Shown here in pieces: positions 497 to 63,478 of a stretch of DNA of 64,000 nt. Source of the stretch: an uncultured Verrucomicrobiae bacterium (lineage in GTDB: Bacteria > Verrucomicrobiota > Verrucomicrobiia > Chthoniobacterales > UBA10450). The stretch lies in contig CAVSDR010000003.1 in assembly GCA_963726745.1 (NCBI GenBank), positions 448,001 through 512,000 on the forward strand, written 5' to 3'. The position numbers were made by a program, and so were the translations under genes. The notes beneath the pieces are model-generated. The model saw only the letters and a list, made by a program, of their open reading frames with translations, searched no databases and was not told the DNA's origin. Numbering within the stretch: position 1 is the stretch's first letter; each line of letters starts with the position of its first letter.

Positions 497-874
497 ATGA
501 AGAACGAGCTGTGGGGGCAATCGAACGCGGAGCCGGAGCGGGTGGAGTTTTTCGGCGCGGAGCAGTTGCGGGAAGCGCTGGAGGATTATGCGGCGACGAC
601 GACGGCGTTGCTTTGGGCTTTGCAACTGGACCCGGAGGCCGACGCGGAGACGCCGGTCTGGTGGCCGCACCGGGCGCAAATGCGCGGGGCGCTGGCGCAG
701 TTTGGGGAGCTTTGCCGGGCGGAGATCGAGCGGCTCGGGCAGTGGGACGAGGACGGGCTCGACCCGGAGGAGGTGCACGAAATGATCTGGGATGCAGGGA
801 ACCGCTTGGTCGAGTGGCTGCAGCGGATGACCGGGACCAGCCCGACCGCCTCCACGGTCGGCGCCGCTCGTTAG
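497..874 (+). CDS. hypothetical protein (125 aa, acidic)
   Basis: C-terminal part of track ORF 32..874, starting at ATG 497 (MKNELWGQ...); coding-like composition. Confidence 0.6.
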   Translation: MKNELWGQSNAEPERVEFFGAEQLREALEDYAATTTALLWALQLDPEADAETPVWWPHRAQMRGALAQFGELCRAEIERLGQWDEDGLDPEEVHEMIWDAGNRLVEWLQRMTGTSPTASTVGAAR

Positions 875-875
875 G

Positions 876-3011
876 CTACCGGATCAGCTTCTCGAGGCTC
901 GGGTTTGCTTCCGCGCCCAGCTCCATCGCCTTCGAATAATGTCGCTTCGCGAGTTCCTTCGCGGGCGGCTTATTCGTCGCGTAGATCACCGCGAGATTGT
1001 AGTGCGCGTCGACGTAGTCCGGATTGGCCGCGATCGCCTCGAGCATTTCCTTCTCGGCCGCTTCCTGCCAGCCCTTCTCGCTCGCGGTGATGCCGAGATA
1101 ATTGTGGGCGATGAAGCTCTTGGGATTAATCGCCAGCGCTTTGGTCAACTCCGTGACCGCCTCGTCGAACTTCGCCTGCCGGTAGTAGACGATCCCGAGC
1201 GTGCGCCGGGTAAACTCATCCTTCGGCGCGAGCGTGACCGCTTTCTTGAGGGTCAACTCCGCGGCTTTGAGCCGGCCGGTGCGGAAGTAGACCGCGCCCA
1301 AATTAGACAGCGCGTAAAGATTGTTCGGGCTTTTGGTCAGGATCTCTTCGTAGTTCTTTTCCGCTGCGCGGAACTTGCCGCCATCGAAGTTCTCCTTCGC
1401 CTCGCGCGCCACCGGGATGAGTTCCTCGGGCACGCTCGGCTTGAAGGTGGTCTCGACGTTCGGGCCTGCACCGGGTTTCGCGCCTTCCTTCGGTAGGGCG
1501 AAGCTCGCGGTCATGCCGCCCTGGGTCGCGCCCGTGCTGCCATCGGAAGTGGTCACCACCGGCATGCGCAGAAGCGCCAGCTCCTCGGTGGTCAATTTCG
1601 CGACCGGCTGCGCGAGCAATTCAATCTGCTGGTTGAGCGTCTCCGACTTGATCTGGAGCTTGTCGAACTCCGCGAGCATGAGCTTCTTCGCCTGTTCGCG
1701 GCGGGCTTCCTCCTGCCGCTCGCGCATGACGATGTTGCGCAGCATTTCGTTTTCCTTGGTCAAACGCGCGGTCTCTTCCGGGTTCGCCCCGGTGGTGCGG
1801 GCCTGCGCGAGCTGCGTGCTGGTTTCATCCAACTGCGTGCGCAATTCCGCGATCGTGCCCTCGAAGTCCTGGTTCTGCTTCTGGCTGGCGGCGAGTTGCT
1901 GCTTCAGCTGCTCGACCTGGCGCCGGACCTCGGCGATTTCCTGCTCCTTCTCCGGCTTGCCTTCGCTGATCTCGCGGATCGATTTCTCGGCCTCGGCCAG
2001 CTTCTTTTGCAGGTCGGAATTTTCCGCAACCAGGGTCTGCACGCGCTCCTGCGCCTGCTTGGAATTCTTCAACTCCGCGACCAGCTGATCGCGTTCCTGC
2101 GTGACCGCGGCAATCTGCGAATTGGCGTCGGTCAGCTTCGCGCTGGCGTCTTCCTTCTCCTTCTCGGCGGCCGCGCGGCCCTGCTCGGCGGCGAGGAGCG
2201 CGCCCTTGAGTTGCGCAATTTCCGCCCGGAGCGCTTCGCTCGCTTTGCTGTCGCCGCTACCGGAAGCCTGCACTTTCTTGAGTGAATCCTGCGCCTTCGC
2301 GAGTTGTTCGCGCGCGGTTTTCTCGGCCCCCGCGGTCTTCTGCAATTCCGTCTGCGCCTGCGTGAGCTTGCTGTTTGTTTCCTGGAGCTTCTCGTTGAGC
2401 GCTTCTTTTTCCTTCTGCACCGAGCTGTATTCCCGGCGCGACTTTTGCAAGTCGGCGGTTAATTGGTCGACCTTCTCCTGCAATTCTTTCGTGGCTTTCT
2501 TGATCGCGGCTTCGCTCGGCGCGGCGGCGGGCGGCGCGGGAGCGGCGGCGATTGCGCTGGGCGCCGGGGTTGCGCTCGCGCGCAACGGCAGGCGCGCCTC
2601 GCCGGCGTGGGTGGTCCCGATCTCCACGCTCGGCTCGGCCGGGCCGGCGTCCTGCGGGAGGAGCGGCGCGCCGCCGGGAGCGGGCTCGGAAGTCGCGGCA
2701 AGGTCTGCTTGCGTGCCGATCTTGCCCTGAACCCGGAGGATGCTTTCGCTGACCTTGCGCGAGCGATACTCGACGATCGCCGGCTGCCATTCGCCATGCG
2801 CTTTTTTCAATTCCTCGAGCAGGCTGCCGGCGAAACGAAACTTCACCAGCGCCGCCTTAAATTGGTTATCGTGCTCGAGCTTTTCGCCCTGCTGCGAGGT
2901 CATGTAAGCCTTGAGGAAGACTTCGCTGGGATCATCGGACTGAGCCCGCAGCTCGACTGGCGCAACGAGGAGCGAAAAACCGGCGATTAAAATCAGACCG
3001 ATTTTCTTCAT
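876..3011 (-). CDS. secreted coiled-coil protein with C-terminal TPR repeats
   Basis: Signal peptide MKKIGLILIAGFSLLVAP, long heptad-rich middle region, C-terminal TPRs (ALSNLGAVY, AHNYLGI, AHYNLAVIY). Confidence 0.85.
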   Translation of the reverse strand: MKKIGLILIAGFSLLVAPVELRAQSDDPSEVFLKAYMTSQQGEKLEHDNQFKAALVKFRFAGSLLEELKKAHGEWQPAIVEYRSRKVSESILRVQGKIGTQADLAATSEPAPGGAPLLPQDAGPAEPSVEIGTTHAGEARLPLRASATPAPSAIAAAPAPPAAAPSEAAIKKATKELQEKVDQLTADLQKSRREYSSVQKEKEALNEKLQETNSKLTQAQTELQKTAGAEKTAREQLAKAQDSLKKVQASGSGDSKASEALRAEIAQLKGALLAAEQGRAAAEKEKEDASAKLTDANSQIAAVTQERDQLVAELKNSKQAQERVQTLVAENSDLQKKLAEAEKSIREISEGKPEKEQEIAEVRRQVEQLKQQLAASQKQNQDFEGTIAELRTQLDETSTQLAQARTTGANPEETARLTKENEMLRNIVMRERQEEARREQAKKLMLAEFDKLQIKSETLNQQIELLAQPVAKLTTEELALLRMPVVTTSDGSTGATQGGMTASFALPKEGAKPGAGPNVETTFKPSVPEELIPVAREAKENFDGGKFRAAEKNYEEILTKSPNNLYALSNLGAVYFRTGRLKAAELTLKKAVTLAPKDEFTRRTLGIVYYRQAKFDEAVTELTKALAINPKSFIAHNYLGITASEKGWQEAAEKEMLEAIAANPDYVDAHYNLAVIYATNKPPAKELAKRHYSKAMELGAEANPSLEKLIR

Positions 3012-3226: not shown

Positions 3227-3262
3227 CATCCTGCCGGCTAAATTCGCCGGGCCAGACCCCGC

Positions 3263-3278
3263 TGGCACGGCCAGTGCT
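3263..3278 (+). promoter_or_regulatory. sigma54-like -24/-12 promoter
   Basis: TGGCACGGCCAGTGCT matches GG-N10-GC with TGGCAC at -24. Confidence 0.55.
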
Positions 3279-3290
3279 AAAAGGGCAGGC

Positions 3291-3461
3291 GTGAACCAGC
3301 TTCTCCCATCTCCCAAGGTGACGGCGCCTGTGGCCCTCACGGGATTTTGGCAGCAACTCCTCGGTGACGCTTCCCTGCGTGACTGCGGTGATCTCGAGAA
3401 ACTCGTGACCGGCTGCGAGATCATCGCCGCCCTCGACGATCTCGCGCTGCTCGACTCCTAA
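3291..3461 (+). CDS. small hypothetical protein (56 aa)
   Basis: GTG start, manual translation MNQLLPSPKVTAPVALTGFWQQLLGDASLRDCGDLEKLVTGCEIIAALDDLALLDS; below the ORF-track cutoff. Confidence 0.45.
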   Translation: MNQLLPSPKVTAPVALTGFWQQLLGDASLRDCGDLEKLVTGCEIIAALDDLALLDS

Positions 3462-3632
3462 ACCGCGGCCTCACTCACGTGCGTCGGCAGACCCCGTCGC
3501 GCAACGGCTCACCCAGCGTCTGGCCGCGAAGTGTCGCCCGCGGGCAAGGCCACTTCCTCGCCCACGGCCACGGTCGACTCTCGTTAGGAATTCACTTCCC
3601 GGCACGGGGCGCTTCGCGGCATACTCGCAGCC

Positions 3633-4220
3633 ATGGCGATGCGCATCTTGCTGGCTGGCTTTCTCGGCGCGGTGGCGATGTTTTTCTGGGCCTTCATCGC
3701 GCACATGGTATTGCCGCTGGGCGAAGCCGGCACGTCCGAGCTCCCGAACGAGAAAGCGGTGCTCGCGAGCCTGCAGGATAACCTGGGCGACCAACGCGGC
3801 TTTTACATTTTCCCGGGTTCCGGGCTCGGACCCGACGCGACCACCGCAGAGAAACGCGCGGCCATGGAGGAGAGCGTGAAAACCTTCCACACCAAGCCAA
3901 GCGGCGTGCTCGTCTACCGGCCGCCGGGCCGCCATTTCGACTTCGCGAAGTGCCTCTCGGTCGAGTTCCTTCTCGAGCTGATCGAAGCGCTGATCGCGGT
4001 CACCCTGCTCGCGCAAACTCGCATCCACACCTTCATCGGGCGGGTCCTTTTCGTCACCAGCATCGGCGTAGTCGCGGCGATCACGACCAACCTTTCCTAC
4101 TGGAATTGGTATGGCTTCCCGAAGCTCTACACGCTCTCCTACATGACCACGCAGGCGGTCGGCTTCGTCTGCGCGGGCCTGGTCGCAGCGTTGATCTTGC
4201 GGAAAACGACGTTTCGTTAG
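3633..4220 (+). CDS. hypothetical membrane protein
   Basis: 195 aa ORF with about 4 TM segments and YWNWYGFP motif. Confidence 0.8.
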   Translation: MAMRILLAGFLGAVAMFFWAFIAHMVLPLGEAGTSELPNEKAVLASLQDNLGDQRGFYIFPGSGLGPDATTAEKRAAMEESVKTFHTKPSGVLVYRPPGRHFDFAKCLSVEFLLELIEALIAVTLLAQTRIHTFIGRVLFVTSIGVVAAITTNLSYWNWYGFPKLYTLSYMTTQAVGFVCAGLVAALILRKTTFR

Positions 4221-4792
4221 GCTGCGGCGGTCTTCGCGGCCTGCGCCTCGTGCCGGCCCTCCGCGAATTCCTCGATCATCTTGCGATTAAACGCCGGGAT
4301 GTCGTCGGGCTTGCGCGAGGTCACGAGTCCGTGGTCGGTCACGACTTCTTCGTCGACCCAATGGCCGCCGGCGTTTTTGACGTCCGTCTGGATGGCAGGC
4401 CATGAGGTCAGCTTGCGACCCTTGACGACGCCGGCGTCGATCAGCACCCAGGGGCCGTGGCAAATCGATGCGACCGGCTTGCCGGCAGTGAAGAAGTGCT
4501 TCGCAAACTCCACCGCCGCAGGCGTGGAACGGAGCTCGTCCGGGTTCATCAAACCGCCGGGAATGAGGAGCGCGTCGAAGTCATCCGGCCGCGCCTGGTC
4601 CAGAGTCAAATCGACGTCAAACTGGTCGCCTTTATCGGCGTGATTCATCCCTTGGATCTGGCCGGGCTTGGTCGAGACGATCGTGGTCTTCGCGCCCGCT
4701 TCGTCGAGTGCCGCGCGCGGCTTCGTCATCTCCACTTGTTCAAATCCACTTGCGACCAGGATCGCCACCTTTTTTCCATCAAGCTTGCCCAT
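4217..4792 (-). CDS. DJ-1/PfpI family protein (type 1 glutamine amidotransferase-like)
   Basis: GFEQVE, IPGG, ICHGP and TSRKPDD motifs. Confidence 0.92.
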   Translation of the reverse strand: MGKLDGKKVAILVASGFEQVEMTKPRAALDEAGAKTTIVSTKPGQIQGMNHADKGDQFDVDLTLDQARPDDFDALLIPGGLMNPDELRSTPAAVEFAKHFFTAGKPVASICHGPWVLIDAGVVKGRKLTSWPAIQTDVKNAGGHWVDEEVVTDHGLVTSRKPDDIPAFNRKMIEEFAEGRHEAQAAKTAAA

Positions 4793-4828
4793 GCCCTAAC
4801 TACGCGGCGCGAGCTGCTGTCGGACGCG

Positions 4829-5242
4829 CTAGAGCTCGTGCGTCATCGGAAGCGCGCCAGAAATTTCCTCCCAGCCCTGGCGCAGCCAAAACTCCCGACC
4901 GGATGCGTTGTCGCCCGCGACCAGGATGATCACCCGCGGAATCCCGGCCGCGCGCAGGCCCGCGAGAGCATCAGCCAGCAACTTCTGCCCCACGCCGCGA
5001 CCGCGGAATTCCGCCGCGACCGCGAGGTGATAGATGAAGCCGCGGCGCCCGTCGTGCCCGCAAAGGACCGCGCCTGCGAGCGTGCCGTTTTCCTCGGCTA
5101 CGCGGCTCAGCATGGGATTGCGCGCGAGATAGCCGGCGATCTCTGCCCGGCTGTCGCCTTCGCAGATTTCCACGCCTTCGACCGCGCGCCAGAGCGCGAC
5201 CGCGCGCTCGTAATCCTCCAGCCGGAACGCCCGTGTTTCCAC
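4829..5242 (-). CDS. GNAT family N-acetyltransferase
   Basis: GHDGRRGFIYHLAV...FRGRGVG acetyl-CoA-binding motif; GTG start chosen at 5242. Confidence 0.88.
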   Translation of the reverse strand: METRAFRLEDYERAVALWRAVEGVEICEGDSRAEIAGYLARNPMLSRVAEENGTLAGAVLCGHDGRRGFIYHLAVAAEFRGRGVGQKLLADALAGLRAAGIPRVIILVAGDNASGREFWLRQGWEEISGALPMTHEL

Positions 5243-5291
5243 CGCGCGACCATGGCGTTGCCGATGCGCGAGTTCAACGCTAGTTCTCGGC

Positions 5292-6963
5292 ATGAAGACG
5301 TCCCTCGCGCTCGCGTTTTTTCTCCCCCTGGCCGCAATCGCCGCGGCCGCGCCAGACACAAAAGAGCTGCAGCAAATGAGCGCGCGCTTCGCCCCGACCG
5401 AGCTCACGGCCGACCTCTCGAAGTTGTCGCCTAACGACCGGAAGGTGCTGGCAAAACTGGTCCGCGTCTCGAAGCTGATCGACGCGATTTTTCTGCGCCA
5501 GGTGTGGGGCGGGAATGTCGCGATGCTGCTCGACTTGAGCGCCGATCCCTCGCCCGCAGGCCGCGCGCGCTTGCACTATTTTCTGCTGAACCGCGGTCCC
5601 TGGTCGCGGCTCGATGGCGACCAGCCGTTCGTCCCCGGCGCGCCGGCCAAGCCGGAAAACGCCGGCTTCTATCCGGACGACGCGAAGAAGGAGGAGGTGG
5701 AGAAATGGATCGCCAGCCTGCCGCCGGAGGAAGCGAAGCAGGCGCGGAGTTTCTTCACCGTGGTGCGGCGCGACGCCGACGGGCGCGACTTCCGTCTGGT
5801 GCCCTACAACATGGAATACCAGAGCCCGCTGCTCGAGGCGGCGCAGCTCCTGCGCGAAGCCGCGGCGCTCGCGAGCGAGCCGTCGTTGCAAAAGTTTCTC
5901 GAGGCGCGCGCGGAAGCTTTCCTAACGAACGACTACTACGCGAGCGACGTCGCCTGGATGGAATTAGACAGCAAGATCGAGCCGACCATCGGGCCCTACG
6001 AAGTCTACGAGGACGGCTGGTTCAATTACAAAGCCGCCTTCGAATCGTTCATCGGCGATTCTCGACGAAAGCGAAAGCGCGAAGCTGCAGAAATTCTCCG
6101 GCGAGCTGCAGGAGATCGAGAACCATTTGCCGATCGATCCGAAGTATCGCAACCCGCAGCTCGGCGCGCTCGCGCCCATCGTGGTGATCAACGAAATCTT
6201 CTGCGCAGGCGATGCGAATCACGGCGTGCAGACCGCCGCCTTCAATCTGCCGAATGACGAGCGCGTGGTCGCGGAGAAAGGGACCAAGCGGGTGATGCTC
6301 AAGAATGTGCAGGACGCGAAGTTCGCCAAGACGCTGGTGCCGATCTCGAAAGTCGTGCTCAGCCCGGCGGACCAAAAGGATCTCTCCTTCGAAGCCTTCT
6401 TCACGCACATCCTGGTGCACGAATTGATGCACGGCCTCGGGCCGCACAACCTCACGCTCGACGGCCGCAAGACGACCGTGCGCCAGGAGATGAAGGAAGC
6501 TGGGAGCGCGCTCGAGGAAGCGAAGGCGGATATCGCGGGCCTGTTTGCGATCCAGCATATGATCGACCGGGGCGTGCTTCCGAAGACGCTCGAGCGCCCG
6601 CTTTACACCACCTTCCTGGCCTCGGCCTTTCGCACGATCCGTTTCGGGATCAACGAAGCGCACGGCAAAGGCCAGGCGATGCAGTTAAATTATCTGCTCG
6701 ATGCGGGTGGCTTTGCGGTGCGGCCGGATGGAACGTTTGCGGTCGAGCCGACGAAGATCAAAGAAGCGGTCGCGAAATTAACCGGCGAGTTCATGACCCT
6801 GCAGGCCGAGGGCGCTTACGAGAAAGCCAAGGCGATGCAGGAGCGGCTGGGCGTGATTCGCCCGGAAGTGGAGCGCGCGCTCGGGAAGATGAAAAACATC
6901 CCGGTGGATATCGAGCCGCGCTTCGTGACCGCGGAGCAACTGCTGCGCGACGAGGCTCAGTAA
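5292..6963 (+). CDS. peptidase M49 (dipeptidyl-peptidase 3-like), frameshifted near 6057
   Basis: Signal peptide, IGPYEVYED, HELMHGLG and LEEAKAD motifs, split over ORFs 5292..6257 and 6127..6963; removing one base restores FIG-ILDESESAKLQKF. Confidence 0.85.
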
Positions 6964-7518
6964 AGGAGCGGCACCAGGCGCTTCGTCCGCCGCATGTAGG
7001 CGGTGTAGGTCTCGCCGAGTGCGCCCGCGAGCGCGCGTTCCTCGACATTCATCCGGTGGATGAAGGCGCCGAAAATAGGCAGCAGGATGACGAGGATGGC
7101 GGCCCAGTTGCCTAACGAGAGGGCAAAGCCGACGAAGGCCAGCAGCACGCCGGTGTAAGAGGGATGCCGGACGACGCGGAAGGGCCCGCGCTCGACCAGT
7201 TGGTGATCGCGCTCGATCGAGACATCGACGGTGAAAAAGCGCCCGAGCGTGATGATGGCCCACCAGCGCAGGATCAAGCCCAGCGCGAACAGGAGCACGC
7301 TCCCGACCGCCAGCGCGCGGGTGTAGGGGAGCGCCGCAATGCGAAAATGTAACGCCACCGCGAGGCCGGCAACGATGCTCGCCCGCGATCACCAGCCAGA
7401 GCATCCCGAGGGTGCTTTGGTCCTGCTTTTTCCCAGTGGCGCTGCGCGAACGCCGGGTCGCGGTCAGGAGCAACTCCGAGAGGAGATAGATCAAGCCGAG
7501 CTTTGCAGGCAGCGACAT
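6957..7518 (-). CDS. isoprenylcysteine carboxylmethyltransferase family protein, frameshifted near 7380
   Basis: GPFRVVRHPSY and VEERAL motifs; N-terminus MSLPAKLGLIYLLSELLL lies in another frame. Confidence 0.82.
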
Positions 7519-7522
7519 CGCG

Positions 7523-7837
7523 TTAGCCGGCTTTCTCTTCGGCGTCCTCGCCGCGGTCGACGATGTCGCCGCTGGTGAAGAGGACATCCTTCGCGATCTC
7601 ACGCCAGAGCGGCTTCGTGCGCAGGAGCCACTCGAGGTCCATCGAGAAGTGTTTGAACTCTTCCTTCTGCGCGTTCTCCATGATCGCGCGCGCGCTCTCA
7701 TCTTTTTCCACCGACATGCGCTGCTCGTACCAATTGATTGCTTCCGCTTCTTCGCCGAGCGCGGCGATCATGCGGGCAAAGGTGCGCGTTTCTGCAGAAA
7801 GTTCGCTGGCCGGTTCGTGGTATTGGTCGAAGCCCAT
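7523..7837 (-). CDS. encapsulated-ferritin-like protein (EncFtn/Flp family)
   Basis: YHEP...EEAEAINWYEQR...EEFKHFSMDLEWL...LFT pattern of EncFtn half-ferritins. Confidence 0.85.
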   Translation of the reverse strand: MGFDQYHEPASELSAETRTFARMIAALGEEAEAINWYEQRMSVEKDESARAIMENAQKEEFKHFSMDLEWLLRTKPLWREIAKDVLFTSGDIVDRGEDAEEKAG

Positions 7838-7932
7838 GGAGCCTTCTACACTGGCGCCGCCGGAGCGCAATCAGCGGCCCGGAGGAGAGTCCGGCCCACG
7901 GGGTCGCACGACGGGCGGCGCGGGCGGGGCGG

Positions 7933-9193
7933 CTAGAGCTCGGGCGCGGCCGCGGCGGAGATGTGGTGGAGCGGATTGAGAAAGTTCAGCTTGCCGGTGT
8001 CGTCGAGCGTGATCTCGCGCGAGCGGTCGCGGTCGCGCACAAAAAGGCGCGTTTGCTCGGCGGCGAAAGCCGGGCTGAGGACGTTCATGTTCGCCTCGTC
8101 GTTCAAGCGCAGGGTGCGCAGGTCGAGATTGCCCGAGCCGACGGAAACGAAGACACCGTCCACCACCATGAGCTTCACATGCACCATCGCGGGCTCGTAT
8201 TCGTAGATGCGAATGCCGGCGCGGAGCAGCTCCGGCCAATGCTTGCGCGAAGCGATGCGGACCATCTTTTGGTCGATGTGTTTCCCCGGAACCACGATCT
8301 CCACCTTCGCCCCGCGCTTCGCCGCGGAGATCAATTCCTTGCGCAACATCTCGTCGGGTAAAAAGTAGGCGTTCTCGATCAAGAGCGAGCGCTGCGCGGA
8401 AGCGATCGCGAGCAGATACATCAGGCGAATGTCGCCGTTGCCCTGCCGCGGCGAGCTGCGGAAAGCCTGCGCGCTGAGGCTTCCGGTCGGGGCGAGCGGC
8501 GGGAAATAATCCGGCCCGTGGAGGACGGTGCCGTCAGTCTTCAGCCAATCGTCCATGAAGGTGGCCTGGAGCTGCGCGACCACCGGGCCGGTGACGCGAT
8601 AGTGGTTGTCGCGCCAATGCTCCGCGGTGTCACCGTTGCCGAGCCATTCATCGGCAATGCCGACGCCGCCGATGAAGCCGACGCGGCCATCGACGATCAA
8701 AAGTTTGCGGTGCGTGCGATTGTTGAAACGCCGCACGTCCCAGAAAAGGAGCGGGTGATACTTCACCACTTTGGCCCCGGCGCTCTGCAGCTTCTGGAGA
8801 TTCTCGCGGCCCATTTTGCCGGTGCCCTGGGCATCGAGAATCACGTTCACCTGCACGCCGGCGCGGGCGCGTTCCGCGAAAGCGTCGGCAAATTTCTTGC
8901 GCAATCTCGCCGTCCCAATAGACGTAGGTCTCGAAGTTGATCGTGCGTTTAGCCGACGCGATCGCCGCCAGCATCGAGGGGAAAATCTCCCGGCCGTTGA
9001 CCAGCGTCTGGATGCTGTTGCCCGGGACGTAATGGCCGCCGAGGAGCGCGCCGCTGGCTTGCTTGAAGGTGGGCGCGGCCGCGGAGTAAAGCGGCTGCAC
9101 CTCGCGCTTCGCCTCGCGGGAGTCGCGGCTGGCGCAGCTGGAGAAAATGCCGGCTAACGAGAGCAAAAGCGCGGCGCGGGAAAGGTGGTTCAT
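7933..9193 (-). CDS. cardiolipin synthase / phospholipase D family, frameshifted near 8900
   Basis: Two HKD motifs (HRKLLIVD, HVKLMVVD); lipoprotein-like N-terminus and TLVNGREIFP in ORF 8648..9193. Confidence 0.87.
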
Positions 9194-9561
9194 TCGGATT
9201 TTTTCGAATCGAAGAGGCGCAACCGCGCGGCGAAATACTCCGCCGCATCCTCGGTTTTGCCGTCGGCCAGGCGCACCTGGTATTTCCGGTGGGTCAGCGA
9301 AGACTCGGAGGCAAGGAACTTCACAAATTGCTCCGCGGTCTGGATCCGCTCACCGGCGTAATCGAGTTTCATCCGCAAATGCTTGGCCGCCGCCGGGCCG
9401 TCGTGGGCAGAGCCGTTGCGGATGAATTGGATGCCCTTGGCCTCCTCGACATCGTGCAGGAGATAATCGATCCGCGCCTGCTCGTGGGGCGAACGCGCCC
9501 AGGCGCTCGCGGAGCCGAAGAGCAAAGCCGCGAGCAGAAGCAGACGGAAAAGAGGCGCCAT
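9190..9561 (-). CDS. DUF5329/YfeK-like secreted protein
   Basis: Signal peptide, then FIRNGSAHDGPAAAKHLRMKLDYA and ASESS motifs. Confidence 0.75.
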   Translation of the reverse strand: MAPLFRLLLLAALLFGSASAWARSPHEQARIDYLLHDVEEAKGIQFIRNGSAHDGPAAAKHLRMKLDYAGERIQTAEQFVKFLASESSLTHRKYQVRLADGKTEDAAEYFAARLRLFDSKKSE

Positions 9562-9575
9562 GAGAGGAGCGTCGC

Positions 9576-52564: not shown

Positions 52565-52571
52565 CTTCCGC

Positions 52572-55510: not shown

Positions 55511-55601
55511 GAGAAAAAGCGGACGGCTGGAGCACTCTGGCCGCGGCGCGGGAGACAGTCCACCGGTTAGAATGAGCTGCCCAGCGCGCTCCCAGAAACG
55601 G

Positions 55602-55631
55602 AAAAGGCCTCGCGCCTTTCGACGCGAGGCC
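55602..55631 (-). terminator. intrinsic terminator
   Basis: GGCCTCGCG/CGCGAGGCC stem; U4 on the minus strand downstream of the gene ending at 55656. Confidence 0.6.
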
Positions 55632-55655
55632 CCCCTGGTAAACTTCCCTAGCGGC

Positions 55656-56855
55656 TTAATCGTGGTTCACTTCGTAGATTTCTACCAGCCCAATTCCTTG
55701 GGTGGTGTCGGCCCCGGAGGCGCTCACGATCGTGGTGTAGGCGCCCGGTTCCAGGCGCACGAGCAGCGCCGCGTCGAGGTCGTTCGACGGCGCCAGCTTG
55801 CTGGCGACGATTTCGGACGCGTTGGCGTTCGCCTTCCAGTCATCGTTCTGCGCCAGGAGCGTGCCGTTGGCGTAGAGCTTGAGCGCTGGATTGGCCAGGG
55901 CCGGGGAAACGCCGGCCGCTGCGAGCGACGGCCCGAGCGCGCGGATCATGACCATTTTCGGCCCGCCGGTAATAATGAAACCACCGATGAGCTGGGCCTG
56001 CCCCTGGCCCACGAGGCCGCGGGTGGAGATATTAGCCATCCGGTTCACCAGCGTGCTCTTGAAGCTGTTCACCGTGTAAGTCCCGGCGCTGGTGGTGAAG
56101 CTGCCCTGGAAGGCGCCGTCCACGATGCTGAAGGAACCGGTGATCGCGCTCGTGCTGCCGACGGTTTTATCGAGCGTGAAGGTGTAGCTGGTCGAGGGTG
56201 CCACGGGCGCGGTGACGGTCCCGAAGCCGCCGGTGCGGGTGAAGTTCGGCGCGGTGCCGCTCACCTGGATCATGGCAATGTGCTGGCTGCGATCGATCAC
56301 AAACATCACCCGGCTGTCGCCGCCCGGGCCGCTGGCCACGCCGACGAAGCGGCCGGCCACGCTCTCGTCGCCGCCGAAGTCCGAGGCGCGTCCCGCCTGG
56401 AAGGTGGCGCCGCCGACATTCCCGCTAATCAGGCGCTCGCCCGCAGTGCCCGTAATGGTCTGTCCATTCGAGAGGGCAAAGCTGAAGGCGCCATTGCTCA
56501 TCACGCCTTCGGCATAGCCGACACTTTGGCCGGAGAGGTCGAGCACGTTCACCTGCAGGCGCGTGTCTTTTTCCACGTAAAGCAGCACGATGCTGCCGGT
56601 GGAGGTGGTCCCTTGGTAAAAGCCGTGCAGGCTCAATTTCCCCTGGCTCGATCCGCCGCCGCCACCGCCGCTGCCGCCGCTTCCCCCTCCGCCGCTGCCG
56701 CCGCCGCCGTGGTCGTCAATTGGCGTGGCGCTGGGTGCCGGCGTTGCCGTGGGCGAGGTGCCGGGGGTAGGCGAAGGCGAGAGTTCGCCGGCGTAGGTAG
56801 TTGCGGTTAAGAGCGCCGCCGCGAACGCGGTGGCGAACAGGTTCTGGGTTTTCAT
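55656..56855 (-). CDS. secreted protein with PT/Gly-rich linker and C-terminal NISTRG-type domain
   Basis: Signal peptide; DDHGGGGS linker; ANISTRG..IGGFII.G..RALGPSL..NDDW..L.PGAYT..GIGLVEIY. Confidence 0.82.
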   Translation of the reverse strand: MKTQNLFATAFAAALLTATTYAGELSPSPTPGTSPTATPAPSATPIDDHGGGGSGGGGSGGSGGGGGGSSQGKLSLHGFYQGTTSTGSIVLLYVEKDTRLQVNVLDLSGQSVGYAEGVMSNGAFSFALSNGQTITGTAGERLISGNVGGATFQAGRASDFGGDESVAGRFVGVASGPGGDSRVMFVIDRSQHIAMIQVSGTAPNFTRTGGFGTVTAPVAPSTSYTFTLDKTVGSTSAITGSFSIVDGAFQGSFTTSAGTYTVNSFKSTLVNRMANISTRGLVGQGQAQLIGGFIITGGPKMVMIRALGPSLAAAGVSPALANPALKLYANGTLLAQNDDWKANANASEIVASKLAPSNDLDAALLVRLEPGAYTTIVSASGADTTQGIGLVEIYEVNHD

Positions 56856-57022
56856 CTGATGCAGTGTTTGGGTTTTGGCTTGGTTTTTGATTGGTGCGCT
56901 GCAGGAGAATCGGCGCCGTGATTATGGAAATTATGAGCACTTCCCGTTCCTTTTTCCCGCGCGGCCGCACGGCTTTTTGCTTGCCCATCCACCCGCCATC
57001 TCGATAGTGCCCTTCGCCTTCC

Positions 57023-57095
57023 GGGGGTATAGCTCAGTTGGTAGAGCGTCTCGTTCGCAATGAGAAGGCCAGGGGTTCGAATCCCCTTACCTCCA
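57023..57095 (+). tRNA. tRNA-Ala (CGC)
   Basis: GGGGGTA/TACCTCC stem with G3:U70, anticodon loop TTCGCAA, T-loop GTTCGAA; CCA not encoded. Confidence 0.95.
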
Positions 57096-57234
57096 CTCCC
57101 CCGCCGGTCCCGCGAAGTGCTTGCCAGCCGCGCAACGACTCGTTATACCGCTCGCTGAAACCAGCCCGCCGCGCGCCGGTCTGCGGTGTTGCGAGGGGCT
57201 GCCAAAATCAAACCCACGCAACTCAGCATCCACC

Positions 57235-57745
57235 ATGATCTCAAAATCAATTCTCCTCACCGGCGCGCTCCTGGCCGCGCTTGCCCTCGGTGCCCCCACG
57301 GCGGCCTTTGCCGCGCAAAAGAAGACGGCCGAAACCAGCGCCGCCGCCCCGGCCGCCTCGCCTGCCGCCAGCGCCAATCGCGGCCGCTTCCCCGGCCGCG
57401 AAAGCTCCTCACGCCCTGCCCTTCCACGGCAAAGTCGGCACGGTCGACGCGAAGGCAAAGAGCTTCACCGTCCCCGGCAAGGAAAAGGAACAGACCTACA
57501 AAATCGTCAGCACCACCGTGATCACCAAGGCCGGCCAGCCGGGCACGATCAAGGACGTGGTCGCGAATGAAGAAGTGCGCGGCAGCTTCCTAAAAAGCAC
57601 CGATGGCACCAACGAAGTGAAGACGCTCAAGGTCGGCCCGCTGACCGACGCCGAGAAGGCCGAGAAGGAAGCGAAGAAACAGAAGCGCGAGGAAAAGAAA
57701 GCCGCCAAGGAAGGCGCGGCCCCGGAAGCCAGCCCGAAACCTTAG
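57235..57745 (+). CDS. secreted Lys/Ala-rich OB-fold-like protein, frameshifted near 57375
   Basis: Signal peptide MISKSILLTGALLAALAL in one frame; PFHGKVGTVDAKAKSFTV...VRGSF in the next frame. Confidence 0.7.
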
Positions 57746-57766
57746 CCGACAACTTCTGGCCTAACG

Positions 57767-57804
57767 AAACCTGCGGCAGGAGCGATTCCCGCCGCAGGTT
57801 TTTT
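57767..57804. terminator. bidirectional intrinsic terminator
   Basis: AAACCTGCGGC/GCCGCAGGTTT stem plus T-run between convergent genes. Confidence 0.75.
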
Positions 57805-59218
57805 ATTTCGCGGCCGCTTTGATGATCCGCAGGTCCTCGAGGAAGAGCGCATACTCGCGCGCGCGCGATTCCTCGTCCGGCTGCCGCAGAAGCGACGACG
57901 GATGCACGGTGGCAATCGTCTGCGCGGAGAACTCCGATTCAAGAATCTCCCCACGCTGTTTCGTTACCCGGAAGTTGCTGCCTAAGATCGCCTGCGCCGC
58001 GGTCGCGCCCAGGCAGACCAGCACCGCCGGCTTCACCGCGCGCAGCTCCGCCTCCATCCACGGGCGGCAGGCGGCGATCTCGCGCGAGTTCGGCTTTTGA
58101 TGGATGCGCCGCTTGCCGCGCGGCTCCCACTTGAAGTGCTTCACCGTGTTGGTCACGTAGACCAGCGAGCGATCGATCCCGGCTTCCTCCAGCGCGCGAT
58201 CAAGCAATTGCCCCGCGGGCCCGATGAACGGCTTCCCGGCGAGGTCTTCCTGGTCGCCCGGCTGTTCGCCCAGCATCATGATCGTCGCTTTTTTTGGGCC
58301 TTCGCCGAAGACGGTTTGCGTGGCGCGTTTGTAGAGGTGGCAGGCGGTGCATGCCTTCGCCGCGTCGGCTAGTTTCTCCAGGCTGGCCGTCTCCGGCACG
58401 GGTGCCGGCTGCCATTCCTCCACCGCATCCGCGGTCTTGCGCTCGCTTTTTTTTACCATCGCCTCGACCCTTCGCGGCGCTTCCTGGAGAAGTGATGGAA
58501 TCAGCACCGCCTCCGGGAGATTGCCCCAATATTTCTTCGGCATCTCCGCCTGCATTGCGTGCACTTTCACGCGACCGGGATTGAAAATGTTCGCGTAGTA
58601 GGTCAGCCAGAGGCCCTCGATCTTGTCGTCTGTCGGCGCCTGCGAACGATCGACGCCCTCGGTAAAAGTCAGCTCGCGCCCATCCCAGTGCGCGCAGCGT
58701 TCCGGGGTCAGGATCGACCAGCGCATCGAGGCAAAGCGATCCACGAAAAAGCCGGCGTTGAATTCCACGATGTGATGCGCCGGCTCGAACCAGGCGACGA
58801 ACCACTTCTCGCCGCCTTCAAGTTCCATCTCCCGGAAGCGGACAAAGGCGCGCATCTTGTGCACGTCGCGCCGGATCGCTTTCTGGAACTCAAAGGCCAG
58901 CGCGGTGTCGGGATCGACCGAAATCTCGAGCAGCTTCGGCTCGCCGTGCGTCAGCCGCCAAACCAGGCGGTAAAGCAAAGCCCAGCGGCGCTCGTCGCGA
59001 TGGAGCGCGACCACGCGCGCCAGCTCCACGAAAGCCTTCGGCACGCGGAAGCGAGTCGTTTCGCTGACCGGCTCTGCTTCTTCGAAAATATCCAGCGCCG
59101 GCTGTTCGCCAGTGAGTTCCTGCCAGACAACCTCTTCCGGCGCGATCCCCGCCTGCAAGGCGCTGCGCGCGGCGCGCTGCCAATCCGCAAACGTCGGGCG
59201 AAAACTGACCTGCCGCAC
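57803..59218 (-). CDS. DUF4130 - UdgX (family-4 uracil-DNA glycosylase-like) fusion
   Basis: N-terminal HKMRAFVRF, WLTYYANIFNP and MPKKYW; C-terminal CTAC, GEQPGDQED, HFKW...KRRIHQKP and HPS. Confidence 0.9.
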   Translation of the reverse strand: MRQVSFRPTFADWQRAARSALQAGIAPEEVVWQELTGEQPALDIFEEAEPVSETTRFRVPKAFVELARVVALHRDERRWALLYRLVWRLTHGEPKLLEISVDPDTALAFEFQKAIRRDVHKMRAFVRFREMELEGGEKWFVAWFEPAHHIVEFNAGFFVDRFASMRWSILTPERCAHWDGRELTFTEGVDRSQAPTDDKIEGLWLTYYANIFNPGRVKVHAMQAEMPKKYWGNLPEAVLIPSLLQEAPRRVEAMVKKSERKTADAVEEWQPAPVPETASLEKLADAAKACTACHLYKRATQTVFGEGPKKATIMMLGEQPGDQEDLAGKPFIGPAGQLLDRALEEAGIDRSLVYVTNTVKHFKWEPRGKRRIHQKPNSREIAACRPWMEAELRAVKPAVLVCLGATAAQAILGSNFRVTKQRGEILESEFSAQTIATVHPSSLLRQPDEESRAREYALFLEDLRIIKAAAK

Positions 59219-59222
59219 GGCG

Positions 59223-60485
59223 CTAGAGCTGGCCGTCGAGCACCGAGGCCTCGGGTTGCGCAAACAAATCCAGTTGCCGCTCCGGCGGCTTGAAGCGCGC
59301 CGGCAAATCCGTGCGATCGATGGCCAGATTGGCCGAGTTGTAATCCGCGGTAATCACGAAGGGCAGCACCTTCTTCACCGAAACGTGGAGCCGCGGGAGG
59401 TCATCGAGTCGCAGCTTGTGCCAGCGGCGCACGCGCACGATGCGCTCCACCGATTTGGTCCCGAGACCCGGGATGCGCAGGAGCATTTCTTTAGGCGCCT
59501 TGTTCAGGTCGACCGGAAATTGCGCGCGATGCCGCAAAGCCCAGGCAAGCTTCGGATCGATCGCGAGATCGAGGTTCGGCGCCGAAGGCGTCGTCAATTC
59601 TCCATGTTGAAATCCATAAAAGCGCACCAGCCAATCGGCCTGGTAAAGCCGATGCTCACGCACCAGCGGCGGCGCGATCAACGGCAGACGACTGGACGCA
59701 TCCGGAATCGGGCTGAATGCGGAGTAATAGACTCGCCGCAGCTTCTGCTTCGTGTAGAGCGAGGTCGCTTGCGCGAGGATGGCCGCATCCGGCGTGTCGG
59801 TCGCGCCCACGATCATCTGCGTGCTCTGCCCCGCAGGCGCGAAGACCGGCGCCTTGCGGCTCTCGCGCCGTTCGATCTTGGACTGCGTGATCCGGTCCTT
59901 GATCTCGAGCATGGCCGCTTCCGTGCGCGCGAAATTTTTCTGCGGCGCCAATTCCTCCAGCGCCACCTTGGTCGGCAGCTCGATGTTGATGCTGATGCGA
60001 TCGGCCCAGCGCCCCGCCTCCGCGATCAAAGCCGGCGACGCTTCCGGAATTGTCTTCAGGTGAATGTAGCCGCGAAACTGGTGCTCGGTGCGAAGAGTCC
60101 GCGCGACCGCAACCACCTGCTCCATGGTGTAATCGGCATTGCGGATAATCCCCGAGCTAAGGAAGAGCCCTTCGATGTAATTTCGCCGGTAAAAATCGAG
60201 CGTCAGCTTGACCACTTCCTCGGCGGTGAAACGCGCCCGCTGCACGTCGCTGCTGACGCGGTTGATGCAATAAAGACAGTCGTAGATGCAGAAATTAGTC
60301 AGCAGGATCTTGAGCAGGGAAACGCAGCGACCATCGGGCGTGTAGCTGTGGCAAATGCCCGAGCCGGTGGTCGAGCCGAGGCCGCCGGCAACGGTCGATT
60401 TGCGCTTGGTCGTGCCGCTGCTGGCGCACGACGCATCGTATTTTGCCGCGTCGGCGAGGATGGCGAGTTTGCTGGCTAAATCCAT
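59223..60485 (-). CDS. putative DNA modification/repair radical SAM protein with C-terminal HhH
   Basis: AKYDASC, GICHS, CIYDCLYC, GQSTQMIVGA and REHRLYQADWL motifs. Confidence 0.92.
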   Translation of the reverse strand: MDLASKLAILADAAKYDASCASSGTTKRKSTVAGGLGSTTGSGICHSYTPDGRCVSLLKILLTNFCIYDCLYCINRVSSDVQRARFTAEEVVKLTLDFYRRNYIEGLFLSSGIIRNADYTMEQVVAVARTLRTEHQFRGYIHLKTIPEASPALIAEAGRWADRISINIELPTKVALEELAPQKNFARTEAAMLEIKDRITQSKIERRESRKAPVFAPAGQSTQMIVGATDTPDAAILAQATSLYTKQKLRRVYYSAFSPIPDASSRLPLIAPPLVREHRLYQADWLVRFYGFQHGELTTPSAPNLDLAIDPKLAWALRHRAQFPVDLNKAPKEMLLRIPGLGTKSVERIVRVRRWHKLRLDDLPRLHVSVKKVLPFVITADYNSANLAIDRTDLPARFKPPERQLDLFAQPEASVLDGQL

Positions 60486-60545
60486 GAGGGCCCCGAGACG
60501 CAATACGCTGCCAACGCGCCCGAAGACGCTCACGTTCGTTTGAAC

Positions 60546-61325
60546 TTACGCCCGCGGCAAGGCCTGGCGCGCGAGAAACTCATCTGCCAGCGCGCCATAA
60601 GCCTTCGCGCCACTCCCGTTGGGCGCGTAGTCGAAGATCGATTGGGCAAAGCTCGGCGCCTCGCTCAGGCGGACCGTGCGTGGGATGACCGTCTGGTAAA
60701 CCTGCGCGCCGAAATGCTCCCGCACTTCCGCCACCACCTGCGCGCTCAGGTTCGTGCGACCGTCATACATCGTCATGAGAATGCCGCGTAATTCCACGTG
60801 ATCGTTCGCGCCGGAGTCGCGGATTTGCTGGATCACGCGCACGATTTTCACCAAGCCCTCGAGCGCGAAAAATTCGCACTGGATCGGCGTGAGCAACTCA
60901 TCCGCGGCCGCGAGCGCGTTTGTCATCAGGATGCCTAACGAGGGCGGGCAATCGAGCAGGATGTAATCGAAGGTATCGTCAGCGCGCAGTGGCTCAAGCG
61001 TGGTCCGGAGGCGCGTGAGATGATTCTCCATCCGCGCGATCTCGATCTCAGCGCCGGCCAGGTCGAGATCGGCCGGGATCAGAAAAAGGCCGTCCACGCG
61101 TGTCGGCAGGACTTTTTCCACGATCGAAGCCTCGCCCAGGAGCGGCCCGTAGAGACTCTCGCCTTCGAGTTCCTGGAGGCCGAAGGAACTGGTCGCGTTG
61201 CCTTGCGGGTCGAGATCGATCAAGAGCACGCGCTGGCCGCGAAGCGCGAGCGCGCAGCCGAGATTGACCGCGGTGGTGGTCTTCCCCACGCCGCCTTTTT
61301 GGTTCGCGATCGCGACGGTTTTCAT
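60546..61325 (-). CDS. ParA/Soj family ATPase
   Basis: NQKGGVGKTTT, DLDPQGNAT, DCPPSLG and EAPSF motifs. Confidence 0.93.
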   Translation of the reverse strand: MKTVAIANQKGGVGKTTTAVNLGCALALRGQRVLLIDLDPQGNATSSFGLQELEGESLYGPLLGEASIVEKVLPTRVDGLFLIPADLDLAGAEIEIARMENHLTRLRTTLEPLRADDTFDYILLDCPPSLGILMTNALAAADELLTPIQCEFFALEGLVKIVRVIQQIRDSGANDHVELRGILMTMYDGRTNLSAQVVAEVREHFGAQVYQTVIPRTVRLSEAPSFAQSIFDYAPNGSGAKAYGALADEFLARQALPRA

Positions 61326-63478
61326 GAGCGCGGGACGAGCAGGCTCCGCAGCTCGAAGGTGCGGTGTCCATCGGCTTCCTGCCAGCAGAGATGCTCCGGA
61401 TCGGGCAGCATCTCGGTGAGCTCGAGCTCGCCCGCTTTCTTCATCCAGCGATTGAGAATCTCGAGCGAGAGATAGCTTTCGAGGTCGAGGTAGACCGGCT
61501 TGGTGTCCTTGTCGCGACCCTCGGCGCCGCTGCGGCGGAGCGCGCCCTCGGTCGGGCGGAGGTAGACGTAGCGCGGGAGATCGCGCGCGGCGCGGAGTTT
61601 TTCCACCGCGAGGACGAGCGCGGGTGCGACGCCCTGGTAATCAGCAGCCGGCAGATCTTGCTCGCTAATGATCCAGGCCCGGCGCTGCACGATCGCCCGT
61701 CCGCAACGCAGCCGCGGCAGGTGCGGGAGGCCGCCGAAGTGGAACGGGTGAAAGCCCAACGGGATAAGCCAGGCGCGCGCGAAAGAGCCGAGGTATTCCT
61801 TGTTTCCCGCGCGCCGAAATCCGACGTCGCCCGTCGTCTCGTCGAGGAACACTTCCGTCTCCGCGGGCGCGACCTGCCGCCAACTCTTATCGGCACGCTG
61901 GTCGGCGACAAAGTAAGTGAGCTCAGGCAGCGCATCGAACAGCCGCACGGTGGTGTGCGCGGTGAAGTCGGCGGCAAAAAAGCCGTAATGCACGCTCGGC
62001 TTCCCGCCGGTAGTGCGGGCGAGCGCGGCGCGGAGCGCGGGTTTGTCCGGGCAACTCCAGTAAAGCGCGTGATGCAGGAGCGCGACCGGCGGATGGAATT
62101 CGCCCACGATCCACTCGTATTCGCCGAGCGTCACGGCCTCAAAGGAGCGCGCGGAAAGCTGCAGGTCGGCGGCCGGGTAAGTGTATTCGTCGAAGGCGGG
62201 GAACTCGAAATTCTCGCGCACGAAGGCGCAGTCTTTCGCGGTCAGATTCCACTCGGCTTCGTGCGCGTGCGCCTCCGCCATCTTGCGGAAAGCGGCTTTC
62301 ACTTCGGCAAAAGCGATCGCGGCTGGCGCGACCAAGCCGACGCCGGTGAGCGGGAGATTTTTGGCCGCGCAATGCGCGAGGAACTCCGGCAACGGCATGG
62401 CGCCGTCTTTGGCGTCCGCGGAGCGCAGCATCCCGGCGAGCGCCTGGGCCACGCGGTGCGCGACGAAGTTGTAGACGTCGCGCCAAAGGCCAAACCACGG
62501 CTCGATGTCAGCCGTGAGCTGTTCGACCATTTCGTGCGTGATGCTGAAGTTCGCCTCGCGCCGGCATTCCTCGGCGATCGGATTGGCCGCGGCGTAAAGA
62601 AAGCGGCGACCGGTGCTGAGCTTGCCGCCTAAATCATCGAGCGCGCGGCGGGCTTCGCTCATGAGCGCGGCCCGCTGCTCGAGATCGGCCGTGCCAGCGA
62701 AGTTGCTGCCTAACGACTGGAGATGCTGCGCGCGCTCATGCCAGGGCGAGTCCGGCGCCATCTCGCTGGCTAAAATCGCGAAGGCTTCCGGCTCCATCGC
62801 CGGGACCGCGAGATCGCCCGCGGCCGCGGCGAGGGTGTGCGCGGCCCAGCGCTCGAGAAAACTGATTCGCTCCGCGATCCCCGGCTGCGGCTCAAAGCGC
62901 AGGGTGTCGGCAATCGTGCCCCAGGCGGACGGCCCGAACTCGCTGTAGGTATCGTTCTTCCCGCAGACGCGCTGGAGGTAGAGATAAAGGTGACGCTCGT
63001 GCTCACGCGCGCGGGCGTTACGCGGTGGCAGCGGTTCGCCGGCCACGGGCAGGCGGTCGCGGAATTCGCCCGCGGAAAAGAGCAGATAGCCGGGCAAAAC
63101 CGTGCGGCTGGATTCCAACAAGGAAGCACGCGCGGCTTCCATTTCGCGGCTGAGCGTGCTGGCTAATTCCCGCTCGAGTCCGGCCGTTGCTTCGCGTTGG
63201 CGGATGAACTCGGCGAGCGCCCCCGGCAGGTCGGCCGTGGATTTTTCCCCGCCGCGCAGGAGCGCCCGGCAGGCGCGCGATTCCTCCGCGCTGAGACCGC
63301 TCGCGCGCGCGCCGACAAATTCCTCGGCCCGCTGCCGCGCCGCCGCGAGTTCCTTCTGCCTAACGAGCAGTGCACGCGCAAGGCGCGAGCTTTCGCTGGT
63401 GGCGAGCCGCAGAAGATGCTCGAACGGGACGCCCGTCGCCCGAATCAAAAAAGGCGAGGCAAGGGTGACGGACGACAC
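61322..63478 (-). CDS. lantibiotic dehydratase N-terminal (glutamylation) domain protein / PEARL-like
   Basis: FLIRATG.P, YLQRVCGKNDTYSEFGP, IVGEFH, HLPRL...QRRAW, LPRYVY, KPVYLDLES, EMLP and ELR motifs; no elimination domain; start codon uncertain. Confidence 0.8.
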   Translation of the reverse strand: MSSVTLASPFLIRATGVPFEHLLRLATSESSRLARALLVRQKELAAARQRAEEFVGARASGLSAEESRACRALLRGGEKSTADLPGALAEFIRQREATAGLERELASTLSREMEAARASLLESSRTVLPGYLLFSAGEFRDRLPVAGEPLPPRNARAREHERHLYLYLQRVCGKNDTYSEFGPSAWGTIADTLRFEPQPGIAERISFLERWAAHTLAAAAGDLAVPAMEPEAFAILASEMAPDSPWHERAQHLQSLGSNFAGTADLEQRAALMSEARRALDDLGGKLSTGRRFLYAAANPIAEECRREANFSITHEMVEQLTADIEPWFGLWRDVYNFVAHRVAQALAGMLRSADAKDGAMPLPEFLAHCAAKNLPLTGVGLVAPAAIAFAEVKAAFRKMAEAHAHEAEWNLTAKDCAFVRENFEFPAFDEYTYPAADLQLSARSFEAVTLGEYEWIVGEFHPPVALLHHALYWSCPDKPALRAALARTTGGKPSVHYGFFAADFTAHTTVRLFDALPELTYFVADQRADKSWRQVAPAETEVFLDETTGDVGFRRAGNKEYLGSFARAWLIPLGFHPFHFGGLPHLPRLRCGRAIVQRRAWIISEQDLPAADYQGVAPALVLAVEKLRAARDLPRYVYLRPTEGALRRSGAEGRDKDTKPVYLDLESYLSLEILNRWMKKAGELELTEMLPDPEHLCWQEADGHRTFELRSLLVPRS

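Follow-up and report, generated by a model that had tools for sequence, protein, structure and literature searches.

The window analysed here, a 64,000-nucleotide stretch (G000:C3:448001-512000) of the 3.41 Mb, seven-contig genome of an uncultured Verrucomicrobiae bacterium that we label G000 (other G-numbers denote other Verrucomicrobiota genomes compared), is studded with an asymmetric ten-base word, GCCTAACGAG, hereafter word A, and the same genome carries a second, independent word, B. Our favored explanation, to which we assign a probability of about 0.45, is that word A and, separately, word B would serve as recognition sites for sequence-preferring uptake or recombination of environmental DNA, in the manner of the DNA uptake sequences (DUS) and uptake signal sequences (USS) described in Neisseriaceae and Pasteurellaceae, respectively. 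The words are maintained at the level of the DNA, with a fixed core and graded flanks; they are orientation-neutral and saturating, in that a second site within about 300-400 bp is disfavored or redundant. rRNA genes lack them, as do accessory or diversifying loci, and the family (UBA10450, in the order Chthoniobacterales) retains type IV pilus genes, DprA and an intact ComEC. New here are the side-by-side occurrence of independent words in a single genome, their family-wide spread, a short and possibly polar exclusion zone, and a link between two phyla.

Abundance, conservation and spacing of word A

The original prediction had reported 20 exact copies of GCCTAACGAG in the window, ten per strand, and every coordinate and strand was right; 100 dinucleotide shuffles gave a mean of 0.04. 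The 19 one-mismatch positions it gave are also real, but the total is 20, a copy at 37685 (GCCTCACGAG) having been overlooked; that copy is probably chance, because shuffled windows yield a mean of 3.8 matches at up to one mismatch. The GC content of the window, put earlier at about 66%, measured 64.2%. Genome-wide, exact word A occurs 820 times against an order-4 Markov expectation of 23.8 and is the commonest 10-mer in G000. Nor is the enrichment confined to one contig, since it extends over all seven and into the fragmented assemblies of relatives. About 11 kb of C1 repeats the end of C6 (a near-identical block at G000:C1:1513-12131 and C6:1024008-1034576, probably an assembly overlap), and a few sites are consequently double-counted in part of the genome-wide tallies. 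Several G000 genes are frameshifted, and its top 12-mers are rotations of a GCCAAC repeat at ~145 copies each.

An expectation-maximization (EM) fit placed word A and its variants at about 2,100 genomic sites with the consensus GCCTAACGAGtnnw, which is non-palindromic. The core CTAAC-A is near invariant, with only 1-42 copies per position carrying a substitution at C3, T4, A5, A6 or C7, while the ends of the word and its flanks vary gradedly. Sequence flanking different copies is unrelated, and in word A and word B alike A/T is preferred one helical turn away from TAA.

Genes were called with a self-trained model (2,865 genes, 85% coding), so gene-relative counts are approximate. Of the 820 exact copies, 625 lie in genes, 118 are intergenic and 77 form a stop codon, a use missed by the original prediction and made possible by a TAA on one strand of the word and a TAG on its complement; 297 of the 2,865 genes end in the A core. 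Against a codon-aware null the enrichment persisted, with 635 exact coding copies compared to 10-14 in three synonymous-codon shuffles, a 55-fold excess. The reading frames proposed earlier are real, the seven-base core spelling 485 of 753 SLG, 181 of 243 PNE, 136 of 403 LTS and 67 of 545 LVR tripeptides, in a genome where TTA accounts for 2,874 of about 102,000 leucine codons. The expected imprint on proteins held for PNE (245 vs 133 for reversed ENP) and SLG (755 vs 416 for GLS), both ~1.8-fold, and at 1.2-fold for LTS, but LVR showed no gain.

We aligned G000 genes to orthologous stretches of relatives to follow these sites at silent positions. In motif-rich relatives, a hand-assigned class compared through non-independent pairs, the seven-base core survived at 28 of the 120 ungapped sites; counting only those with identical amino acids, it survived at 25 of 29. 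Motif-poor relatives gave 10 of 311 and 10 of 72, respectively. Background 7-mer identity was equal (0.111 vs 0.107). These counts at unchanged amino acids, set against an equal background, indicate that lineages using the word preserve its rare codons, even as sites turn over fast. Selection or drive therefore acts on the DNA instead of the protein, as had been proposed.

We then considered how word A is distributed along the genome. Chi and KOPS (FtsK-orienting polar sequences) are skewed by replichore, and the original prediction had named a strong skew as the mark of such a signal. Taking replichore polarity from a KOPS pattern, we found 789 A sites co-oriented and 844 against, while the KOPS control itself gave 197 vs 49. 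A sites also avoid one another: 207 neighbors lie within 300 bp where 376 +/- 15 are expected, and under a null preserving tripeptide, frame and contig the values are 133 and 211.5 +/- 11.8, so that by these counts the word is spaced more evenly than random. The avoidance reaches about 300-400 bp and is present in all three pair orientations, opposite-strand pairs excluding as strongly as same-strand pairs, and 40 control 7-mers displayed slight clustering and no avoidance. At 100-400 bp, fewer A pairs stand face to face than back to back (51 vs 84; within single genes 20 vs 42, p about 0.007, an exploratory value from bins picked post hoc), and at 400-1500 bp the two are equal (79 each), which suggests, on an exploratory basis, that the zone of action extends further 3' of GCCTAACGAG. 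Pair distances showed no helical phasing, and a simple fast Fourier transform on C3 and C6, less sensitive than the published method, found no periodicity of tens of kilobases (p 0.61 and 0.91).

Depletion from rRNA genes and islands, a check that the original prediction had suggested, was observed. The 16S region contains no A site and the 23S gene sits inside a motif-free gap; the two genes appear unlinked (G000:C6 near 177 kb and 826 kb). A-free gaps longer than 9 kb, whose translations we read by eye, mostly hold polysaccharide clusters, large secreted proteins and pilin cassettes, and A density falls to 0.125 per kb in genes with a third-position GC content (GC3) below 0.7 from 0.59 otherwise, about a fifth; accessory status was assigned here from GC3 and translations, with no pangenome. 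Uptake sequences are likewise evenly spaced, scarce in rRNA and new DNA, and depleted in diversifying regions (PMC7811141, PMC2397512).

Further words and their distribution across genomes

A mixture model around CTAA separated word B, SAWnKYGYYGSCTAAW, which the original prediction overlooked. Its profile spans 16 bases and reaches at least 15 bits at 3,194 G000 sites; an EM count of 10,244 was inflated by zero-order background and was discarded in favor of the 15-bit count. In coding sequence we counted 2,611 B sites compared to 178-212 in synonymous shuffles. Word B avoids itself (619 vs 787 +/- 19) and exhibits neither replichore skew relative to KOPS polarity (3,816 vs 3,786) nor pair polarity (267 vs 293 pairs). 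Spacing between A and B is independent (pair ratio 0.99-1.08), and 191 of 1,552 A sites bear a B arm on the same CTAA against a background of 1.6%. Some islands contain B without A and a few contain neither, suggesting nested ages.

Across the family, tallies include the unpublished genomes G001, G008, G042, G046, G053, G169 and G534. Word B is abundant in only two of 151 family genomes, G000 (1,348 copies) and G046 (551), the latter an unpublished genome of another genus on which all statements about G046 rest; it is weak in G015 (105) and at most 78 in the remainder. A 136-kb sample of G046 yielded GATCGCGTCGGCTAAC-type words from its k-mer list, which alone was kept, as the EM fit of B in that sample collapsed onto codon periodicity. 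Word A spans 6-1,749 exact copies (2-479 per Mb) in the 151 genomes, exceeding 100 per Mb in 35 and twice its reversed control in 125, and within a single genus its density runs from 14 to 479 per Mb, a more than 30-fold range. Sixteen genomes from other families of the order hold 0-14 exact copies. The core GCCTAACG occurs 1,346 times in G000 and 104 times in an A-poor family member, compared to at most 72 times in each of 249 other Verrucomicrobiota.

A third word, C (GATCGACAAT, consensus about AGATCGACA(A/T)), reaches at least 250 copies in 19 of 101 genomes from ten mostly A-poor genera, with up to 1,520 exact copies per genome (in G066, G045, G049, G087 and others among those seen) and 11 in G000. 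In genus g42, A and C occur together, interspersed. Words A and C broadly follow genera, the exceptions, judged without a tree, being g42 (A and C), G000 (A and B) and the presence of B in two distant genera.

Within Verrucomicrobiota word A is thus family-specific, as the earlier term lineage-specific implied, but that term fails in two respects: G000 carries a second independent word, and the eight-base core is hyper-abundant in Gemmatirosa, of another phylum. We checked the Gemmatimonadaceae word CGTTAGGC on plasmid 1 (1.1 Mb) of Gemmatirosa kalamazoonensis KBS708, a finished RefSeq record, which contains 778 copies of GCCTAACG (374/404 by strand) versus 20 of a control; on the megaplasmids of this species the core occurs at about 0.7 per kb on both strands. 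In a 130-kb sample it was the top 8-mer, with 87 copies against 4.4 expected. Like its counterpart in G000, the Gemmatirosa word tolerates a last-place G to A change; it does without the A that comes next, and 60 of its 110 sites carry an upstream GnY arm resembling that of B. Given this shared core, tolerance and B-like arm, A, B and the Gemmatirosa word seem to form one family around G-S-C-T-A-A.

Two apparent dialects were rejected: GCCTACGAT, which 40-kb samples of G005 and G002 had made look enriched, stays at 6-61 copies throughout the 151 genomes, and GCCTAACCA, considered for G098, has just 56 copies there and is modestly raised (143-189) in G103, G118, G123 and G133. In a 40-kb sample of G474, from another family, GAGATTCT/GAGAATCT and TCTCGGCT stand ~10-fold over expectation and may be an abundant word or a local repeat. 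Scans of viral sequence for two spaced copies returned 2, 0 and 12 loci, mostly repeats or chance, and one window protein searched against viral contigs found no match. A phage contig, L239 (62.5% GC, with a portal-like gene), carries four GCCTAACGA in 20 kb, of which the search pattern itself imposed two. A search of sequencing runs listed no RNA run with the genome, and the best DNA share was 0.11, with short, mixed contigs.

A possible uptake signal or another genome-wide code

If the words are uptake signals, site-bearing fragments would be taken up and recombined more often, and this favoring would let site-creating mutations spread and see site-destroying ones overwritten, a form of molecular drive. 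Local exclusion would follow because one site per short fragment suffices, and the lack of mutual exclusion between A and B points to separate readers. Word B may have been acquired later or by transfer, and the sister genera would use a third reader, for word C.

From the traits that the words share with USS and DUS we infer an uptake tag. Like the USS of Pasteurellaceae, they have a non-palindromic core, graded flanks and A/T-rich outer positions, occur about once per kb without strand preference, lie within genes at fairly even spacing, and are scarce in rRNA and new DNA (PMC7811141, PMC12616744); unlike USS, they belong to another phylum and have no sequence likeness to it, almost never form inverted terminator pairs, include two independent words in one genome, and have a core common to yet another phylum. 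As in the DUS of Neisseriaceae, the ten-base word is the commonest of its length, imprints tripeptides and is depleted in diversifying regions (PMC2397512, PMC3630211); a doubling of uptake-sequence tripeptides is reported (PMC2817400), and DUS dialects are built around a conserved core (PMC3630211), comparable to the G-S-C-T-A-A that joins A, B and the Gemmatirosa word. They depart from DUS in that ComP matches fall below cut-off, density varies more than 30-fold in one genus, and the occurrence of B in two distant genera and of an unrelated C is not one dialect per clade. HIP1 (highly iterated palindrome 1, GCGATCGC) of cyanobacteria is also hyper-abundant, selected, located within genes and recently tied to transformation (PMC5861425, PMC13756078), and its function is unsettled (PMC5861425); it is nevertheless palindromic, with known methyltransferases and a periodicity of 18-94 kb, whereas A and B are asymmetric and aperiodic and no matching methyltransferase was found. 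We found no published description of words A, B or C in a search that left subscription journals and supplements outside, where a table of over-represented words could exist, and the main text of two Udaeobacter papers mentions neither competence, DNA uptake nor a motif.

Several observations weigh against uptake. Close inverted pairs, within 40 bp, number only 2 among 2,125 A sites, whereas DUS and USS often form terminators. The A exclusion zone is shorter than Neisseria conversion tracts (PMC2397512), and the 130-kb Gemmatirosa sample showed no clear exclusion (18 vs 21.9 neighbors within 300 bp); a core that also occurs in Gemmatirosa would moreover serve poorly to mark a species. The ribosomal-protein region shows no depletion (27 A sites vs 21.8 expected), and LVR is not enriched over reversed RVL in G000 proteins (546 vs 572). 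As for machinery, G000 carries DprA, PilB, PilC, PilM, at least 16 pilin-type genes and a ComEC with all three domains, and ComEC is matched in 142 of 151 family genomes, but this says little because 10 of 14 control genomes match it too. The ComP_DUS profile matched only below cut-off (E 8.8e-4), and no pilin was tied to A or B, PpdA being outside the search. In this family the ComEA-like protein takes the form of a secreted fusion of SNase and HhH, yet in G000 the gene (C4:17230-17874) is truncated before HhH, with just a fragment kept elsewhere, and A-rich G059 (100% complete) has no match to it. Among the candidates examined no reader protein was found for A or B. By their statistics the words are DUS/USS-like, but we do not file them as members of either class because terminator pairs and a ComP receptor are wanting. 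The original prediction of a DUS-like signal or the site of an abundant DNA-binding protein named what remains the right pair of candidate hypotheses, although no receptor was found.

The candidates set aside as readers are as follows. The SNase-HhH gene is associated with A (24 of 26 A-rich vs 40 of 74 other genomes at >=90% completeness, kin being non-independent) but is neither necessary nor sufficient, and it is frameshifted in G046 and G063. Pilins were rejected as readers of B, since a comparison of G000 with G046, G142, G154 and G002 loci, taking the best 30 loci per search, showed no pilin with exceptional similarity in the two B genomes. Close orthologues of a PilX-like DUF7305 protein occur in 14 of 35 A-rich genomes and in 20 of the 116 others, and the query found none in A-rich G013, G024, G058, G059 or G065. 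A pair of small winged-helix-like proteins is present also in motif-free G031 and G063. A by-eye screen of paralogue pairs gave no further candidate. As for the loci themselves, the winged-helix-like pair lies at G000:C4:87313-87630 and C6:962411-962680, belongs to no Pfam family, and one of its members directly follows an scpA-like gene. The loci G000:C3:584383-586936, C6:623578-626133 and C3:1029966-1034730 hold two paralogous minor-pilin cassettes, each of three genes with a DUF7305 PilX-like protein last, and one Verru_Chthon cassette, and the cassette beside prs is swapped for unrelated alleles in G154 and G046.

A broader proposal, which we hold tentatively and consider rather doubtful, is that an undescribed and transferable family of sequence readers may be rewriting soil-bacterial genomes. 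Each reader would raise a word of its own to roughly one site per kb and act over a polar zone of ~350 bp, several would share a cell without interference (A and B in G000, A and C in g42), and one lineage with core GCCTAACG would have crossed between Verrucomicrobiota and Gemmatimonadota, forming a code distinct from DUS/USS, HIP1, Chi and methylation sites.

The words could alternatively be binding or loading sites of abundant cytoplasmic DNA-binding proteins, such as a nucleoid organizer or a replication or repair loader, each covering ~350 bp and reaching further to the 3' side of GCCTAACGAG, with weak per-site selection made effective by very large soil populations. This is unlikely but a credible contender: the local exclusion over about 300-400 bp, the rarity of face-to-face A pairs at 100-400 bp, the equal use of both strands, megaplasmid included, and the A/T preference one helical turn from TAA in both words all suit a bound protein, and a transferable one would explain the same core in two phyla. 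An essential architectural role is hard to reconcile with a density of 14-479 per Mb in one genus and 2-479 in the family, and the lack of long-range periodicity differs from HIP1 (PMC5861425). The occurrence of the winged-helix-like pair in motif-free genomes and the absence of polarity in word B likewise argue against it.

Quite unlikely, in our judgment, is that a DNA methyltransferase or nicking enzyme acts on the words and that methyl-directed or short-patch repair or conversion makes and keeps them, as proposed for HIP1. The patchy and partly complementary distributions of the three words recall those of mobile modification systems, word C includes GATC, and a directional zone would suit a repair tract; HIP1 methylation has been linked to transformation (PMC13756078), and here too methylation could be the mark for uptake, as in Campylobacter jejuni (PMC12378983). 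A single-copy orphan N6/N4 DNA methyltransferase with an SPPY motif (G000:C3:981293-982042) is present in 35 of 36 family genomes at 67-76% identity, but we rejected it as a reader, for its presence does not track A: G073, G079 and G046 have it although they are A-poor, as do 26 genomes from other families, and 40-kb samples of eight such outsiders hold 0-1 GCCTAACG each. A C5 methyltransferase is found only in G000, one of five A-rich genomes, and type I HsdM matches are partial. Graded profiles, with B extending over 16 bases, are generally unlike enzyme targets, and fourfold-site GC is nearly flat close to the sites (0.888-0.896). As an observation apart, GTAC is strongly avoided in G000 (observed/expected 0.16) and may be the target of the orphan enzyme.

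A Chi-like or KOPS-like polar signal for AddAB or a DNA translocase appears very improbable. Such signals are also short, asymmetric and over-represented, G000 has an AddA-like gene, and A shows some polarity, but neither A nor B is skewed while KOPS is, which largely refutes the KOPS form, and the equal exclusion by opposite-strand pairs is not what a Chi model predicts. That the words are an artifact of codon bias, repeats or sequencing error is barely conceivable despite the frameshifts and the C1/C6 duplication, given the excess over synonymous shuffles, the unrelated flanks, and their presence in a finished RefSeq record as well as in assemblies ranging from 1 to 800 contigs. A primase site (CTA on one strand and TTA on the other) was dropped, given about 26,000 occurrences of CTA.

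Copies in the window and wider meaning

The 20 exact window copies comprise 15 within coding sequence, three that supply stop codons and two intergenic ones. The stop-forming copies are 867..876 (minus strand, its plus-strand TAG ending the open reading frame (ORF) 497-874), 17935..17944 (plus, its TAA ending ORF 16765-17940) and 40690..40699 (minus, providing both the TAA and the TAG of two convergent genes); the intergenic copies are 23491..23500 (plus) and 36552..36561 (minus). A B arm accompanies the copies at 17935, 23491, 36552 and 40690, as well as 24117..24126 (minus), which is antisense in a CLC channel gene identified by Pfam. Other coding copies read antisense at 7110..7119 (plus), 15005..15014 and 25768..25777 (both minus) and 63358..63367 (plus, LVR frame), and sense at 16646..16655 (minus, PNE frame), 27872..27881 (plus, LT frame), 37329..37338 (plus) and 52968..52977 (minus). 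The copy at 52311..52320, coding by the self-trained gene call, is listed as minus although GCCTAACGAG reads on the plus strand.

Pfam agreed with the trpD, birA, ParA and aldehyde dehydrogenase hosts named by the original prediction. The aldehyde dehydrogenase gene (43006-44556) contains 43092..43101 (plus, PNE) and, antisense at its 3' end, 44544..44553 (minus); the biotin/lipoate ligase gene (49002-49604) contains 49279..49288 (plus), the TrpD-type Glycos_transf_3 gene (49580-50626) contains 50007..50016 (minus), and the ParA-type AAA_31 gene (60546-61325) contains 60933..60942 (plus), antisense. The 19 one-mismatch copies, spanning 3580..62717 with 37685 omitted as probable chance, start at 3580, 4213, 5429, 9152, 12744, 22135, 23180, 28820, 29359, 31629, 35921, 38223, 38874, 40176, 41651, 43563, 54733, 57759 and 62708; those at 4213, 12744, 28820, 29359 and 40176 act as stop codons.

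Strict word B (SANNNYGYYGNCTAA) has 36 matches spanning 3227..63166, ten of which use the CTAA of a listed A site. Twenty-two are on the plus strand, at 3227, 5420, 9143, 16673, 17926, 23482, 29270, 33069, 35478, 35912, 40167, 44202, 46005, 46757, 50407, 51466, 57971, 60465, 62618, 62699, 62759 and 63152, and 14 on the minus strand, at 5964, 8949, 12478, 24121, 27305, 28141, 36556, 36754, 40317, 40694, 49531, 54362, 57742 and 60295. Elsewhere in the window (57803-60485), a radical SAM-HhH gene adjoins a DUF4130-uracil DNA glycosylase fusion, a putative DNA repair pair.

The system is testable because a cultured strain of another phylum has the same core, and the differing distributions of the three words over about 150 genomes provide a natural experiment for finding their readers. 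The words are also usable as markers for binning and for dating islands. Should they prove not to be uptake signals, they would constitute a previously undescribed genome-wide binding code. Candidatus Udaeobacter is among the most abundant soil bacteria (10.1101/053942), and the close relatives of G000 include Candidatus Udaeobacter records; if the uptake reading is true, biased DNA exchange would shape the genomes of dominant soil bacteria and their proteins too, two thirds of the SLG tripeptides in G000 being spelled by word A.

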